Assembly (NCBI GenBank): GCA_021650915.1
Contig: CP091279.1
Location: 1,050,001 to 1,082,000 of the forward strand
Length of the DNA stretch: 32,000 nucleotides
Reading direction: 5' to 3'
Source of the DNA: Candidatus Brocadia sp.
GTDB taxonomy: Bacteria > Planctomycetota > Brocadiia > Brocadiales > Brocadiaceae
Shown: positions 26,930-32,000 of the stretch, piece by piece
How positions within the stretch are numbered: the first letter of the stretch is position 1
Layout of the letters: the number at the start of each line of letters is the position of its first letter
The notes under the pieces: generated by a model
What the model was told of the DNA's origin: nothing
What the model saw: only the letters and a program-made list of their open reading frames with translations
Databases searched by the model: none
Made by a program: the position numbers and the translations under genes

Positions 26930-27211
26930 ATGGCCCGGGCAATAAAAGAAAGAATTGGTTCAGTAGATGAACCGCTAGAGAAGAAGCTCTGGAAGGCGGC
27001 AGATAAGTTGCGGAAGAATATGGATGCCGCTGAATACAAGCACGTTGTATTAGGCTTGATTTTTTTGAAATACATTTCTGATGCCTTTGAAGAACTCTAT
27101 GAAAAGCTAAAAGAAGGTAAGGGTGACTACGAAGGTGCTGACCCGGAGGACAAAAATGAATACACAGCCGAAAAGGTGTTTTATGTGCCACCCTCTGCAC
27201 GATGGAAATAG
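26930..27211 (+). CDS. hsdM: Type I R-M methyltransferase HsdM, N-terminal fragment ending at an in-frame TAG
   Basis: HsdM_N signature [40 protein letters not shown]. It is in the same frame as 27263-28975 and is separated from the continuing homology only by the TAG at 27209-27211. Confidence 0.85.
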
Positions 27212-27262: not shown

Positions 27263-28975
27263 ATGGATGCCATCGAAAAAGATAATCCGTCACTCAAAGG
27301 GGTGTTGCCGAAGGTGTTTGCGCAGGAGAAGTTAGACAAGCAGAGTTTAGGCGGTTTGATTGACCTTGTGGGTAGCGCCACATTGGGCACAAAGGTGGCT
27401 CAAAGCAAAGATGTATTGGGCAAGGTGTATGAATATTTTTTAGGTGAATTTGCCCTGGCGGAAGGCAAAAAAGGCGGACAGTTTTATACCCCTGGTAGTG
27501 TGGTAAAACTCTTGGTTGAAATGCTTGAGCCTTATGAGGGCCGCGTGTTTGATCCCTGCTGTGGTTCTGGCGGTATGTTTGTCCAGAGTGAAAAATTTGT
27601 GGAGGCCCACCGGGATTACTACAAAAAGCACAACGGGAAGAAACTGAACATAAACCCAAAAGACCGTATCTCTATTTACGGACAGGAAAGCAACCAGACC
27701 ACCTGGCGTTTGGCCAAGACAAACCTGGCTATCCGTGGTATTGACAGCAGCAACGTAAAGTGGAACAACGAAGGCTCTTTTCTCAATGATATGCACAAAG
27801 ATCTGAAGGCCGATTACATCATTGCCAATCCACCCTTTAACGATAGCGATTGGAGCGGTGAGTTACTTCGTGACGATGCCCGGTGGAGCGTGCTGGGACA
27901 GAAATTACCACCACCCCCAAATAATGCCAACTATGCCTGGATACAACACTTCCTCTATCACCTGGCGCCTTCCGGCCAGGCAGGTTTTGTACTGGCGAAG
28001 GGTTCGCTGACCACCAAGACCAGCAATGAAGGCGATATACGAAAGGCAATGGTGGAAAACGATTTAATTGACTGCATTGTAAACCTGCCTACCAAGCTAT
28101 TTCTCAATACACAAATACCAGCCTGTTTGTGGTTTATTTGCCGGAATAAGTCCGGCAAACCCTCATCCGGCGCCACGCACCACCTTCTTCCAGTGGGAGA
28201 AGGGCATTATCGGGGAGGATTTGATTTCTCAGGACAATTGGAATTGGCAAGAATGCTTCGGAATAATGCCACGCCGGCGGAGCAGCTTTTTTGGGAGTTA
28301 GTGCGCGATCGCCGTTTTCTGGGATTAAAATTCAGACGTCAGCACCAAATCGGCGCCTACATTGCGGATTTTTACTGTGATGAAAAGAAACTGGTAGTAG
28401 AACTGGATGGCGGAGTACATAACGAGCCCACAAGGATAAAGATCGATCATAAGCGAGATGCTTATATGAAATCGCTTGGCATAACCGTGTTTCGTTTAAG
28501 TAATGAGCAATTAATGCGTAATCCAGAAAAAGTATTAACTTCAATTGCTTCTGCTGTTTCCCCTTCTCCTTTTGGGAGAGGGGAAGGGGTGAGGGTGAAC
28601 GAATCTCGCAACCGAAAGGGAGAGATGCTGTTTATAGATGCCCGCAATATGGGTTTTTTAATAAACCGCAAAAACCGCGAGTTGTCTGATGATGATATTG
28701 CCCTGATTGCAACTACCTATCACAACTGGCGTACTGGCGAGGGCAAGTACAAGGATGTGCAGGGCTTCTGCAAATCGGCAACACTGAATGAAGTAAAAGC
28801 TTTAAACTATGTATTGACACCAGGCAGGTATATTGGCTTGCCCGATGATGAAGATGATTTTAATTATGAGGAAAGAATTATAAAATTGAAAGCTGAGTTA
28901 CACCAACAAATGCGGGATGAAATAAAGTTAAATGAAATAATCAATAGGAATCTTGAAAAAATTCGATTGCAGTAA
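27263..28975 (+). CDS. hsdM: Type I R-M methyltransferase HsdM, main body, carrying an in-frame DUF559 insertion
   Basis: AdoMet motif VFDPCCGSGGMFV and catalytic NPPF (IIANPPFNDSDW). HsdM homology actually resumes right after the TAG (LQGRAKLPTIGKDIDDAMDAIEKDNPSLKGVLPK). A block of about 154 codons is inserted between CRNK and RKGEMLFIDARN. Confidence 0.88.
   Translation: MDAIEKDNPSLKGVLPKVFAQEKLDKQSLGGLIDLVGSATLGTKVAQSKDVLGKVYEYFLGEFALAEGKKGGQFYTPGSVVKLLVEMLEPYEGRVFDPCCGSGGMFVQSEKFVEAHRDYYKKHNGKKLNINPKDRISIYGQESNQTTWRLAKTNLAIRGIDSSNVKWNNEGSFLNDMHKDLKADYIIANPPFNDSDWSGELLRDDARWSVLGQKLPPPPNNANYAWIQHFLYHLAPSGQAGFVLAKGSLTTKTSNEGDIRKAMVENDLIDCIVNLPTKLFLNTQIPACLWFICRNKSGKPSSGATHHLLPVGEGHYRGGFDFSGQLELARMLRNNATPAEQLFWELVRDRRFLGLKFRRQHQIGAYIADFYCDEKKLVVELDGGVHNEPTRIKIDHKRDAYMKSLGITVFRLSNEQLMRNPEKVLTSIASAVSPSPFGRGEGVRVNESRNRKGEMLFIDARNMGFLINRKNRELSDDDIALIATTYHNWRTGEGKYKDVQGFCKSATLNEVKALNYVLTPGRYIGLPDDEDDFNYEERIIKLKAELHQQMRDEIKLNEIINRNLEKIRLQ
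28151..28612 (+). other. DUF559 (Vsr/PD-(D/E)xK-like endonuclease-fold) cassette inserted in frame within hsdM
   Basis: The core ARMLRNNATPAEQLFWELVRDRRFLGLKFRRQHQIGAYIADFYCDEKKLVVELDGGVHN...DAYMKSLGITVFRLSNEQL matches DUF559 as I know it. It is flanked by GC-rich hairpins built on ggagaaggg (28196-28204) and cccttctcc (28561-28569). Confidence 0.75.
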
Positions 28976-28994
28976 AACTTGAAAAGGTATAATT

Positions 28995-29516
28995 ATGATT
29001 ACACAGCAACAGGCGGATTATCTCGTTGCTCTGCCAAAACATATCATTGAAGATGATGCGCTGTTAGAAAGAAAATTGTATGCTCCCTCGTTCCCTATTG
29101 ACGACCGAATGTATTCGGTCTCAAAAGCAGACGATGAGTTCTCCTTTTTTCTGGAAATAACGCAAAGCTCCAAAAAAAATCTGAAATTGACTTTGCACTT
29201 TCAAGAAGAAGATGCCAGTATAGGTTTGTTAAGAGTTGATTTCAACGGAAGGCATCCTAATCCTGAAATTGCAAATGATAAAGTGCCTGACATTTTTAGG
29301 TCTTTTGCCGGTCAATGGCTTGAAGAAAGCCATATTCATTATTTTGTAGAAGGGTATAAACCGTTGGCATGGGCTATCCCGTTAAAAGCAGATAATACAT
29401 TTTCTGTTAAGGATTTTACCAATATAAGTGAATTTGGCGATATCTTTCGGGTATTTGGGAATAAAATCAATCTCCAAACTGTTTTAGAAATTTGCATTCA
29501 AAGGCAACTTATATGA
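28995..29516 (+). CDS. Hypothetical protein (173 aa), no family recognised
   Basis: The ORF starts 19 nt after the hsdM stop. Its stop overlaps the next start (ATGA). Motifs are RVDFNGRHPNPE and ESHIHYFVEGY. Confidence 0.65.
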   Translation: MITQQQADYLVALPKHIIEDDALLERKLYAPSFPIDDRMYSVSKADDEFSFFLEITQSSKKNLKLTLHFQEEDASIGLLRVDFNGRHPNPEIANDKVPDIFRSFAGQWLEESHIHYFVEGYKPLAWAIPLKADNTFSVKDFTNISEFGDIFRVFGNKINLQTVLEICIQRQLI

Positions 29517-30298
29517 CCTGGATTGACAGACTTATAGATGATTACTACCGTTTTCTCAGGCAAAAAACGGTAATTACCGAATTGCCATCAAGTGGGTGGA
29601 TTGAAATAAGCACCCCGTTTACGGATGTGTTTAATGACACCATTGAAATTTATGCAAAAAAGAGTAACGGAAAAATTATTTTATCGGATGATGGACAAAC
29701 ATTAAAAAATCTTGAATTAAGCGGGGTTGAAATATCACGTTCTCAAAACAGGAAAGAAATGTTAGAAAGAATATTGTTGAACTATGGAGTACGACTCGAA
29801 GATAAAGAATTGCTTGCGGAAGCTACAGAAAGCACTTTTCCTCAAAAAAAACTTAATCTGCTTGCCGCCATTTCCGAAGCAAATGATTTATACGTACTGG
29901 CGAAACATACTGTGGCAGGTCTTTTCCGGGAAGACGTAAAAGCATATCTTGACGAACAGGGGTTAGTATATACGCCTTACTTCCTTTCAAAAGGAAGCAC
30001 GGGACTGGAATTTACCTTTGACTTTCAAATTGCTTACCGGCAAACTGAACTTTTAATTAAGGCATTTAACACAATAAATAAACTTAATCTTCCTCATTTT
30101 CTCTTCACATGGGATGATGTTAAGCAAGTAAGAGAAAAACAAACCGAAAAAAAGGTAATTGGTCTGGCAGTAATCAATAACGAAGACCGTGAAGTGAAAG
30201 ATGAATACCTTGAAGCCTTGCAAAACAAGGGTGCCGAGTTTATTTTATGGACGGAAAGAAATAGGCCAGAGAACATCAAAAAGCTGAAGGCGGCTTAA
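29513..30298 (+). CDS. DUF1828/DUF1829-like two-domain protein (261 aa), function unknown
   Basis: The N-terminus WIEISTPFTDVFNDTIEIYAKK and the overall architecture recall DUF1828+DUF1829; this is from memory and has not been searched. I chose the ATG at 29513, which is coupled to the upstream stop. The ORF track starts at 29492. Confidence 0.65.
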   Translation: MTWIDRLIDDYYRFLRQKTVITELPSSGWIEISTPFTDVFNDTIEIYAKKSNGKIILSDDGQTLKNLELSGVEISRSQNRKEMLERILLNYGVRLEDKELLAEATESTFPQKKLNLLAAISEANDLYVLAKHTVAGLFREDVKAYLDEQGLVYTPYFLSKGSTGLEFTFDFQIAYRQTELLIKAFNTINKLNLPHFLFTWDDVKQVREKQTEKKVIGLAVINNEDREVKDEYLEALQNKGAEFILWTERNRPENIKKLKAA

Positions 30299-30299
30299 A

Positions 30300-31478
30300 A
30301 TGTCTGAGTGGAAGGAATATAAATTTTCAGATTTTGTTCATATCAATCCTACCTTAAAGTTGAGTATAGGAGAAACATATTCTTTTGTTGAAATGAAAGA
30401 CCTTAGTAACGGTCATAAATTCTGCACTCCGAGCATAGAAAGAAAACTAACAAGCGGTTCAAAATTTCAGGAAGGTGATACATTATTTGCTCGAATAACT
30501 CCGTGTTTAGAGAATGGGAAAATATGTCAAGTACGTGGTTTAAAGAATGGTGTAGGTTTTGGCTCAACTGAATTTTTTGTTTTTCGCGGTAAGCATGATG
30601 TTTCCGATAATGAATTTGTCTTTTATTTGTCTCGATGGGATGAAGTGCGGTCGTTTGCTGAAATGAATTTTGACGGAACATCTGGACGTCAAAGAGTTCC
30701 AAAAGAATCACTTGACAATCTTTTTTTAAAATTACCCCCTCTCTCCGAACAAAAATCCATCGCCTCCATCCTCAGCAGCTTAGATGACAAGATAGACCTG
30801 CTGCACCGTCAGAACAAAACCTTAGAGGCATTGGCGGAGACGTTGTTCAGGCAGTGGTTTGTGGAGGAAAATGAATCTTTGGAAATCGCAAAATTAAAAG
30901 ACTTTTGTAATCATCTAAAGGCAAATGTCAATCCTTTAAAACAGCCTGACAAAATATTCCATCATTACAGCATACCTGCATTTGATGAAGGACAAGAACC
31001 TGAAATTACTCCAGGAAGAGAAATAAGAAGTAACAAGTATCAAATAAAGGAAGGTACAATTCTGATTTCAAAATTAAACCCTCGCTTCCCTCGTGTATGG
31101 CCGATTCTCGAAAATATCGGAAAAAATCATTCAATCTGTTCTACGGAATTTCAAGTTGTCGAACCAAAAGATTCAAAATACTTTGGATTTATCCTTTGCT
31201 TTCTAAAATCAAAAGCAGTAAAAGATGAATTAATTCAATCAACAAGTGGCACAAGTGGCAGTCATCAAAGAGTTAGTCCTGAAGATATTTTTAACTTAAC
31301 TATTCCTGTTACAAATGACGATAAGTTAAATGAATTCAATCTTATTACTAATCCATATTGGGATAAGATTAAAAATAACAAACGCCAAATCCGCACCCTC
31401 ATCCGTTTACGTGATACGCTCTTGCCCAAGCTGATGAACAGAGAGGTACGGGTTAAAGAGTTGGATTTACTTACTTAG
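30300..31478 (+). CDS. hsdS: Type I R-M specificity subunit HsdS
   Basis: 392 aa with two target-recognition domains. They are separated by the conserved helix LPPLSEQKSIASILSSLDDKIDLLHRQNKTLEALAETLFRQWFVE and followed by the C-terminal helix IRTLIRLRDTLLPKLM. Confidence 0.9.
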   Translation: MSEWKEYKFSDFVHINPTLKLSIGETYSFVEMKDLSNGHKFCTPSIERKLTSGSKFQEGDTLFARITPCLENGKICQVRGLKNGVGFGSTEFFVFRGKHDVSDNEFVFYLSRWDEVRSFAEMNFDGTSGRQRVPKESLDNLFLKLPPLSEQKSIASILSSLDDKIDLLHRQNKTLEALAETLFRQWFVEENESLEIAKLKDFCNHLKANVNPLKQPDKIFHHYSIPAFDEGQEPEITPGREIRSNKYQIKEGTILISKLNPRFPRVWPILENIGKNHSICSTEFQVVEPKDSKYFGFILCFLKSKAVKDELIQSTSGTSGSHQRVSPEDIFNLTIPVTNDDKLNEFNLITNPYWDKIKNNKRQIRTLIRLRDTLLPKLMNREVRVKELDLLT

Positions 31479-31522: not shown

Positions 31523-32000
31523 ATGACAAACGATAGCAAGACTTACGAAATTTTCAAAAGCGGTAGCGCTTGGATACGTGCGGACTTTCATCTTCATACG
31601 AAGGCAGACAAAGAGTTCAAATATGACGGTAAAGAGAATGAGTTTGTAAATGCTTATGTTCAGCAATTGAGAGATGCTGGAATTTCCATTGGCGCTATTA
31701 CGAATCATAATAAATTTGATCTTGGCGAGTTTAAAGCCCTCAGGACTAAAGCACATAAAGAAGAAATTTTCCTTCTGCCAGGAATCGAGCTTTCAGTAAA
31801 GGATGGTTCAAATGGACTCCACACACTGGTTATTTTTAGTGATGAGTGGGTAATCAATCAAGAGAACACAGACTATATCAATAGTTTTCTGAGTGTGGCT
31901 TTTGCCGGTCAATCGAATTATGAGAATGAAAATGCCCGCACAAATCACGACCTGTTGGAGACCATCCGGGAGCTGGATAAATTCTCCAAGGAGTATTTTC
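31523..32000 (+). CDS. PHP-domain protein, N-terminal part (continues beyond the window); possibly the PHP+ATPase class seen in defence islands
   Basis: ATG at 31523 with GGAGAAG 3 nt upstream, and an open frame to the window end. The PHP signature is WIRADFHLHTKAD ... GAITNHN ... LPGIELSVKDGSNGLHTLVIF. Confidence 0.75.
   Translation, partial: MTNDSKTYEIFKSGSAWIRADFHLHTKADKEFKYDGKENEFVNAYVQQLRDAGISIGAITNHNKFDLGEFKALRTKAHKEEIFLLPGIELSVKDGSNGLHTLVIFSDEWVINQENTDYINSFLSVAFAGQSNYENENARTNHDLLETIRELDKFSKEYF

Follow-up and report, generated by a model that had tools for sequence, protein, structure and literature searches.

One of the genes known to reside in type I restriction-modification (R-M) operons is that for PrrC, a lone protein that joins an ABC-ATPase-like part to a C-terminal anticodon nuclease and that in the prr locus is physically controlled by EcoprrI. 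PrrC is almost always embedded in operons of this type (bioRxiv 10.1101/2024.01.29.577857). Here we examine two adjacent genes, ORF1 and ORF2 (open reading frames of 173 and 261 amino acids), that lie between hsdM and hsdS in a 32,000-nucleotide stretch of Candidatus Brocadia sp. DNA (contig CP091279.1, positions 1,050,001 to 1,082,000; hereafter the window). Like PrrC with EcoprrI, and like RloC, the pair consists of non-R-M coding sequence placed between hsd genes, co-transcribed with them and suited to a second line of defence. Unlike them, it comprises two unrelated proteins without an ATPase in Pfam and NCBIfam searches, and it is often found without hsd genes. A PADLOC scan of the pair returned only matches to a different system, PDC-M24, and none to PrrC or RloC.

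PDC-M24 is one of 145 "phage defence candidates" that were identified by their location within BREX, DISARM and type I R-M operons (Payne, Hughes, Fineran and Jackson 2024, bioRxiv 10.1101/2024.01.29.577857). It was proposed through "guilt-by-embedding" and is listed as cassette CAS_00098, FAM_00129>>FAM_00065, with a count of 153 (Payne et al. 2024 Table S8, bioRxiv 10.1101/2024.01.29.577857). The same study assayed Hma-embedded candidates only (bioRxiv 10.1101/2024.01.29.577857), and later papers assayed other members of the catalogue. PDC-M24 has been present in PADLOC-DB since 2023 and is a PADLOC-DB v2 candidate.

A second point of comparison is DS-6/HipAD, a two-gene system whose defence activity has been validated. 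One of its two proteins has a DUF1829 domain (HHpred probability 0.78), and the system is predicted to follow a toxin-antitoxin-like logic (PMC13092281). The Brocadia pair resembles it in having two genes, one with DUF1829, but in DS-6/HipAD the other partner is a HipA-like kinase, the DUF1829 protein carries DUF3037 rather than DUF1828, and there is no DUF6978 protein. The DUF1829 protein of that system, DS-6B, was proposed to bind DNA or to act as an antitoxin, not to cut (PMC13092281). In the same work, DefensePredictor scored Escherichia coli proteins with DUF1828 plus DUF1829, the domain combination of ORF2, as "predicted novel defense gene" (Science 2026, PMC13092281).

The pair itself is laid out as follows.

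28995 to 29516, forward strand (+): ORF1, PDC-M24A / DUF6978, 173 amino acids; Pfam DUF6978 at 3.1e-25, PADLOC PDC-M24A at 3e-55
29513 to 29516, forward strand (+): ATGA stop/start overlap of ORF1 and ORF2 (TGA over ATG), read from the sequence
29513 to 30298, forward strand (+): ORF2, PDC-M24B, 261 amino acids, with its TAA at 30296-30298; PADLOC PDC-M24B at 1.8e-94
29612 to 29872, forward strand (+): DUF1828, N-terminal domain of ORF2, residues 34-120; Pfam 7.1e-27
29993 to 30259, forward strand (+): DUF1829, C-terminal domain of ORF2, residues 161-249; Pfam 5.8e-22

ORF1 matches the PADLOC model PDLC04537 (PDC-M24A) over residues 1-166 of 173, and ORF2 matches PDLC04539 (PDC-M24B) over residues 1-257 of 261. 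The two genes are adjacent, on the same strand and in the order A>>B, which is the cassette definition FAM_00129>>FAM_00065. Judged by these profile matches, ORF1-ORF2 is almost certainly a copy of PDC-M24, an already catalogued candidate anti-phage system. It has the same A and B models, gene order and type I R-M embedding and shows no architectural difference; the Brocadia locus differs by a damaged hsdM and by further embedded genes after hsdS. The pair is not novel: the Brocadia copy is a further instance, in an anammox planctomycete, of a catalogued candidate. ORF1 is 100% identical to protein DCC43_09820, and the start of ORF2 in homologues is the ATG at 29513 rather than the upstream TTG at 29492.

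An earlier note on this DNA, made from the letters and reading frames, had given coordinates, an ATGA overlap and a one-base gap between the ORF2 stop and the hsdS ATG at 30300, all of which proved exact on re-reading. It also recognized the DUF1828/DUF1829 architecture of ORF2, and both Pfam domains are indeed matched, but its statement that ORF1 matches no family it could name does not hold, as ORF1 is a DUF6978 protein. NCBIfam and PHROGs searches gave no functional names for either protein, and no paper on the function of DUF6978 or DUF1828 proteins was found in the searchable literature.

Distribution and genomic neighbourhoods of the pair

A genome scan seeded with ORF2 yielded 80 loci, whose neighbours were labelled with profiles built from those loci, and the converse scan, seeded with ORF1, produced 72 loci that extend far enough downstream to be judged (metagenome loci and one viral contig). 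ORF1 stands directly upstream of ORF2 in 77 of the 80, the other three being contig edges or a degraded copy, and ORF2 immediately follows ORF1 in all 72 eligible loci. The stop of A overlaps the start of B in 73 of 77 loci, by 4 nucleotides in 62 and by 1 nucleotide in 11. ORF1 and ORF2 are an obligate, translationally coupled unit, in an arrangement beyond chance, and the earlier description of them as a co-occurring pair is borne out. Compared with close relatives, both genes have a ratio of non-synonymous to synonymous substitution (dN/dS) of 0.05-0.11 and so are under strong purifying selection.

The hosts of the ORF2-seeded loci belong to the Planctomycetota, Nitrospinota, Bacteroidota, Ignavibacteria, Chlorobiota, Cloacimonadota, Thermodesulfobacteriota, Bacillota (Heliophilum) and Saccharibacteria, and include the archaeon Methanimicrococcus. 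At least 677 clusters of B (90% identity) and 332 clusters of A (50% identity) were counted. Identity of the pair ranges from 55 to 96% across Planctomycetota, Bacteroidota, Nitrospirota, Chlorobiota, Bacillota and one methanogenic archaeon, and its GC content, at 37%, is below the roughly 45% of the remaining window sequence. High identity across distant phyla and low GC mark the pair, at the level of sequence, as horizontally mobile. The GC fraction falls from about 0.50 upstream to 0.35-0.39 over ORF1, ORF2, hsdS and the next gene.

In 47 of the 80 genome loci, hsdM, hsdS or hsdR lies within 6 kb on the same strand, and in 35 the pair is flanked on both sides. The arrangements seen are S-AB-R (17 loci), M-AB-S (14) and R-AB-S (3). 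Similarly, hsd neighbours occur in 31 of the 39 ORF1-seeded loci of at least 6 kb, which puts the share of loci in type I hsd operons at about 60-80%. Embedding among hsd genes was found in 11 of 21 ORF2 clusters (70% identity) and is thus not one inherited event. Other R-M and defence contexts include a pair between type III mod and res (mod-AB-res, locus L007), one directly after a type ISP enzyme (L067) and one in a BREX-like locus that also encodes a kinase and a phosphatase (L010). Solo pairs stand amid oxidoreductase, SHMT/ABC transporter, hydantoinase or TonB-receptor genes, with neighbours that vary by locus.

Temperate phages of staphylococci, lactobacilli and streptococci carry the pair too. 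Lactobacillus prophage Lj965 has it as Ljo_0292/0291 and Staphylococcus aureus phage 37 as ORF031/ORF014, with both partners matching the PDC-M24 models. In each it lies in the lysogeny module, between repressor and integrase, a placement comparable to that of prophage-encoded defence 'morons', and in Lj965 a gene for superinfection exclusion stands two genes beyond B. In phages, A is only about 152 amino acids long and 21% identical to ORF1, and it is assigned to PHROGs families lacking a functional name. One IMG/VR viral contig and 10 PLSDB plasmid records carry the pair as well.

The survey as a whole found strong enrichment of the pair in R-M operons, other defence loci and prophage lysogeny modules, co-occurrence of its two genes and no match to a housekeeping family, in line with what the earlier note had expected of a defence module. 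That note had further described the pair as hard-wired to the methyltransferase and specificity genes. This is apt for transcription in the Brocadia locus, but it does not extend to the S-AB-R, mod-AB-res, prophage and solo loci. Because the pair also occurs in type III, prophage and solo contexts, a functional dependence on Hsd proteins of the PrrC kind is unlikely.

Two side observations concern these loci. In eight of them from different phyla (L006, L017, L031, L034, L047, L051, L075 and L077), the adjoining HsdM is about 80-88% identical to that of the window and more conserved than the pair there (ORF2 57-77%, ORF1 40-64%); embedded genes thus seem to favour one HsdM lineage, itself widely transferred, as their host. 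In a Bacteroidota metagenome-assembled genome (MAG), a second, very divergent pair lies two genes upstream of the regular one (L035, 1728-2956). It consists of a 159-amino-acid protein (PDC-M24A, weak, E 0.0035) and a 250-amino-acid DUF1828-type protein (PDC-M24B, 1.8e-15), and the locus reads as a tandem of two diverged cassettes.

The two proteins

Across 64 members of the ORF1 family, which share 30% mean identity, ten residues are invariant (K15, R80, H87, N89, P90, H113, H115, W126, A127 and P129) and two, D82 and P98, nearly so. In the window they fall mostly into four elements.

29037 to 29039, forward strand (+): K15 of ORF1, invariant
29232 to 29264, forward strand (+): R80-x-D82...H87-x-N89-P90 of ORF1, invariant, D82 nearly so
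29331 to 29339, forward strand (+): H113-x-H115 of ORF1, invariant
29370 to 29381, forward strand (+): W126-A-x-P129 of ORF1, invariant

The His-rich motifs to which the earlier note had drawn attention contain R80, H87, N89, P90, H113 and H115, all invariant family-wide. The shorter phage versions of A keep K15, R80, H87, H113 and H115 and do without the loop between H87-N89 and H113. From this conservation, the invariant residues look like a putative catalytic or metal/phosphate-binding site.

The AlphaFold2 model of ORF1, built from 62 sequences, has a mean predicted local distance difference test score (pLDDT) of 94.7 and a predicted template-modelling score of 0.91. It consists of an N-terminal helix, a six-strand meander, the H87-x-N89-P90 loop, a hairpin with H113-x-H115 and W126-A-x-P129, and a C-terminal helix. 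An HMMER profile search of 1.84 billion representative proteins returned only 332 clusters. The best 150 of these 332 were all of at most 225 amino acids; none was a fusion, and none linked the family to another. For both ORF1 and ORF2, searching PDB sequences with profiles gave nothing significant.

Several assignments of ORF1 were considered and rejected. A relation to the HIT family was suggested by structure 3oj7, which reached E = 1 with one profile (A1), aligning HIHYxVxGxxxLAW; the match was lost with a more diverse profile (A3), the position of the third histidine varies among Y, I, L and F, and no HIT fold was matched. Cupin and HNH readings of the His motifs fail by reasoning from the alignment, as E119 is not conserved and H87 stands too close to N89, and scanning the 64 members against Pfam at E <= 5 gave no support for either. 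ORF1 is not a paralogue of the N-terminal domain of ORF2 either (hhalign probability 0.9%).

Among 23 diverse members of the ORF2 family, the invariant polar residues are D59, T63, R80, K113, D125 and D202; D42, D60 and D141 come close to invariance, and an acidic residue (D/E) always occupies position 170. The most conserved site of the protein is in its DUF1828 half, and the best-conserved acidic residues of the C-terminal domain are D141, D/E170 and D202. Structure comparison with the ORF2 model (pLDDT 68) gave weak Foldseek matches of the C-terminal half to R.BspD6I (prob 0.99, E 0.02), N.BspD6I and BstEII, and further weak matches to the Lassa L endonuclease, the nuclease domain of Avs4 and MUS81. 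DUF1829 is listed in Pfam clan CL0236 PDDEXK (PMC13092281). The C-terminal domain of ORF2 thus resembles, weakly but consistently, PD-(D/E)xK effectors such as R.BspD6I and Avs4, and from the model we infer that it is a restriction-endonuclease-like module of that clan. The N-terminal half of the same low-confidence model matches the YbjN/AmyR structures 6vu7 and 5frk (E 0.06-0.07, prob 0.63-0.82), and no match of DUF1828 to YbjN-type proteins was found at the sequence level.

Proposed function and rival explanations

We lean, with modest confidence, towards the pair being an autonomous nuclease-type defence module, anti-phage or anti-plasmid, or an abortive-infection module. The PDC-M24 pair would ride inside the type I R-M operon as a second defence layer. 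Here it would be expressed from the hsd operon and function without need for the Hsd proteins. A and B would be made in a fixed ratio and probably act as a complex. B (ORF2) would be the effector or sensor, its DUF1829 domain binding or cutting nucleic acid, while its DUF1828 domain, possibly YbjN- or chaperone-like and bearing D42, D59 and D60, may serve regulation or partner binding. A (ORF1), a compact beta-rich fold, would bind metal or phosphate at its Lys/Arg/His/Asn/His-x-His site and may be a catalytic subunit or co-catalyst, or else an enzymatic regulator of ORF2. Activation triggered by infection would then lead to damage to phage or host nucleic acid, with both the trigger and the nuclease chemistry being presumed. 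The more specific proposal that ORF2 is itself a nuclease effector is one we hold only tentatively.

The earlier note had proposed an accessory defence or abortive-infection module. That proposal agrees with the published guilt-by-embedding prediction and with the DefensePredictor scores. The contexts described above, in R-M operons, other defence loci and prophages, speak for such a role, as do the defence-type genes embedded nearby (TrlF/Ppl-like and IteA/IteS-like).

A number of results weigh against a defence function of this kind. No experimental assay of PDC-M24 was found in the searchable literature, and the record of other candidates of the catalogue assayed by others is mixed, with 4 of 8 active. 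Of the 80 genome loci, 33 (about 40%) have no hsd genes within 6 kb, and at 18 non-hsd loci only a few of 122 neighbour proteins match defence models. The position of the pair within hsd operons is clade-specific, so part of its association with R-M is inherited and not independent. As to the proteins, Foldseek found no fold match for the ORF1 model (best E 0.63 in PDB and 0.19 in BFVD), and the ORF2 model is mediocre, with every Foldseek match above E 0.01 (0.02-0.3). In contrast to PD-(D/E)xK nucleases, the canonical (D/E)xK lysine is not conserved in the ORF2 family: in the would-be motif E179 varies and K183 may be K, N or Q. This leaves nuclease activity of ORF2 uncertain; its DUF1829 domain may do no more than bind DNA, as has been proposed for DS-6B.

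Should PDC-M24 work in defence, it would be a widespread two-protein immune module in many bacterial phyla, an archaeon and temperate phages. The chemistry of ORF1 could be new, because its confident predicted fold is without a structural relative. In an extended form of the proposal, which we regard as unlikely, ORF1 is an unrecognized enzyme fold whose invariant K/R/H/N/HxH site, with the invariant acidic cluster of DUF1828, would form or control a new nuclease-based abortive-infection switch, spread across bacteria, archaea and temperate phages and lodged in R-M operons as a backup for failed restriction. Tractable hosts are S. aureus and Lactobacillus, which have prophage copies, and E. 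coli, whose homologues DefensePredictor singled out; one E. coli pair contains WP_000968518.

The rival that survives best, though we consider it distinctly unlikely, is a toxin-antitoxin-type addiction cassette, with one toxic protein and the other neutralizing it, that stabilizes an island, prophage or plasmid, any effect on phages being incidental. The pair consists of two small genes, and its conserved 4-nucleotide stop/start overlap is typical of type II and type VII toxin-antitoxin operons. Type VII systems have enzymatic antitoxins (HEPN-MNT), which the enzyme-like invariant site of ORF1 brings to mind. Location on prophages, the 10 plasmid records and mobile R-M islands would suit addiction, as would solo pairs among housekeeping genes, and the DUF1829 partner of DS-6/HipAD has been proposed as an antitoxin (PMC13092281). 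Nevertheless, neither protein matches a toxin-antitoxin family in Pfam, NCBIfam or PADLOC, both are bigger than typical antitoxins, and no helix-turn-helix or autoregulatory domain was detected. This explanation also overlaps the defence module we favour, as addiction and abortive-infection defence are not mutually exclusive.

It is less probable still that the pair has a function outside conflict, in regulation, nucleic-acid metabolism or lysogeny, and hitch-hikes in variable regions. The roughly 40% of loci without defence neighbours would be expected under such a function, YbjN-family proteins are regulators in enterobacteria according to the match descriptions, and no functional assay of the pair was found in the searchable literature. 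However, the solo neighbours differ from locus to locus, leaving no conserved tie to any housekeeping pathway, and enrichment in R-M operons and at the positions of prophage morons is hard to explain otherwise.

We find it very improbable that the pair is an accessory or guard of the R-M system in the manner of PrrC, binding the Hsd complex and firing on a phage anti-restriction protein, or modulating restriction or modification. Beyond the precedent of PrrC itself, this idea draws on the three conserved positions of the pair between hsd genes, often with gaps of 1-20 nucleotides, and on the many flanking HsdM proteins that are 70-90% identical to that of the window across phyla. Yet the pair lacks the near-exclusive type I R-M embedding of PrrC, being absent from hsd surroundings in 33 of 80 genome loci, and stays intact and conserved in prophages and solo chromosomal sites. 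It occurs with unrelated partner proteins in type III, type ISP and BREX-like loci and has no similarity to PrrC or RloC. Even in the window, with its nonsense codon in hsdM, not one non-synonymous change separates the pair from that of four other assemblies of the species.

Least probable of all is a selfish, homing-type nuclease cassette that inserts between genes without benefit to the host: its patchy spread over very distant phyla at high identity, its low GC, its placement exactly at intergenic junctions with undisturbed neighbours and the nuclease-like fold suggested for one partner by weak Foldseek matches are outweighed by the lack of consistent terminal direct or inverted repeats or target duplications in the five loci examined, of an integrase or transposase travelling with the pair and of multiple copies per genome, by the strong purifying selection on both genes and by clade-specific positions that suggest few insertions followed by co-inheritance.

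The surrounding operon and its damaged hsdM

For this window, the value of the analysis lies mainly in correct annotation of a type I R-M operon full of embedded defence candidates with a damaged methylase gene. The features around the pair are as follows.

26930 to 27211, forward strand (+): N-terminal part of hsdM (HsdM_N domain), Pfam HsdM_N at 4.9e-21; closes at the in-frame TAG 27209-27211
27263 to 28975, forward strand (+): remainder of hsdM, a 570-amino-acid reading frame with the N6_Mtase catalytic domain and C-terminal region; Pfam N6_Mtase at 1.6e-100, PADLOC MTase_I at 9.6e-145
28151 to 28606, forward strand (+): in-frame DUF559 (Vsr-like endonuclease) insertion in hsdM, 456 bp; Pfam DUF559 at 4.9e-33
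28976 to 28994, forward strand (+): spacer between hsdM and ORF1, 19 nucleotides, with an AAGG Shine-Dalgarno-like motif read from the sequence
30300 to 31478, forward strand (+): hsdS, type I specificity subunit; Pfam Methylase_S at 1.1e-21, PADLOC Specificity_I at 9.7e-66
31523 to 32000, forward strand (+): 5' end of a TrlF-family AAA-like ATPase gene with a PHP domain at the N-terminus, continuing past the window; NCBIfam NF045780 at 3.5e-35

A scan for promoters and terminators found none that was convincing within the hsdM-ORF1-ORF2-hsdS unit. The tight layout of four genes described earlier is correct, but the unit does not end at hsdS, the TrlF-family gene starting at 31523. Nor is hsdM the one clean gene it had been taken for, as it contains both the in-frame TAG and the DUF559 insertion. 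The codon at 27209-27211 is TGG (Trp) in four other assemblies of the same species (L165-L168) and in the Brocadiaceae locus L002. The two parts of hsdM are in the same frame, and they form a single 681-amino-acid reading frame in L166 and L168. As far as the aligned assemblies tell, the nonsense change is specific to this strain or to its assembly. The type I R-M system may be inactive in this strain because of it.

The four assemblies are 99.7% identical to the window over 5.5 kb, with 15 differing positions. In hsdM these are one nonsense (TGG to TAG), three missense and five synonymous changes; one further change is intergenic, upstream of hsdM, two are missense changes in hsdS and one is synonymous in the TrlF-like gene. 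Within the pair, ORF1 has none and ORF2 has two synonymous changes. The operon of L165-L168 runs from hsdM (681 amino acids including the DUF559 insertion) through A, B and hsdS to the TrlF-like ATPase (883 amino acids), and then to an AlbA_2/HATPase protein (385 amino acids), small open reading frames and hsdR.

The TrlF-family gene, related to the anti-phage protein Ppl, adds a second defence-type gene to the operon; it is embedded between hsdS and hsdR, as is a gene of this type in locus L031. In L165 (12131-14410), a 385-amino-acid SLFN_AlbA_2 plus HATPase_c_4 protein and several small open reading frames, one of them weakly PIN-like, precede hsdR, so that the operon of this species holds at least four embedded gene sets. 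In the Brocadiaceae MAG locus L002 (7008-10498), hsdS is instead followed by an IteA-like AAA ATPase and an IteS-related S8 peptidase. Close relatives thus differ in the cargo that follows hsdS but share the A-B pair.

Hairpin-forming repeats flank the DUF559 insertion, namely CCTTCTTCCAGTGGGAGAAGGG at 28183-28204 and CCTTCTCCTTTTGGGAGAGGGG at 28562-28583. The L002 orthologue lacks the insertion, and L001 has it at the same site with 91% identity. It resembles a mobile domain cassette that leaves the reading frame of its host open. The hsdR of L165 (15490-17494, 969 amino acids) has an N-terminal DUF559 match before its ResIII/SWI2_SNF2/T1R domains, which may be either a further copy of the insertion or a substitute for the nuclease domain that HsdR usually has. 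Elsewhere in the window, a 22-nucleotide segment at 3294-3315 matches the right-hand repeat of the insertion (91%), and the repeat may be dispersed through the genome.

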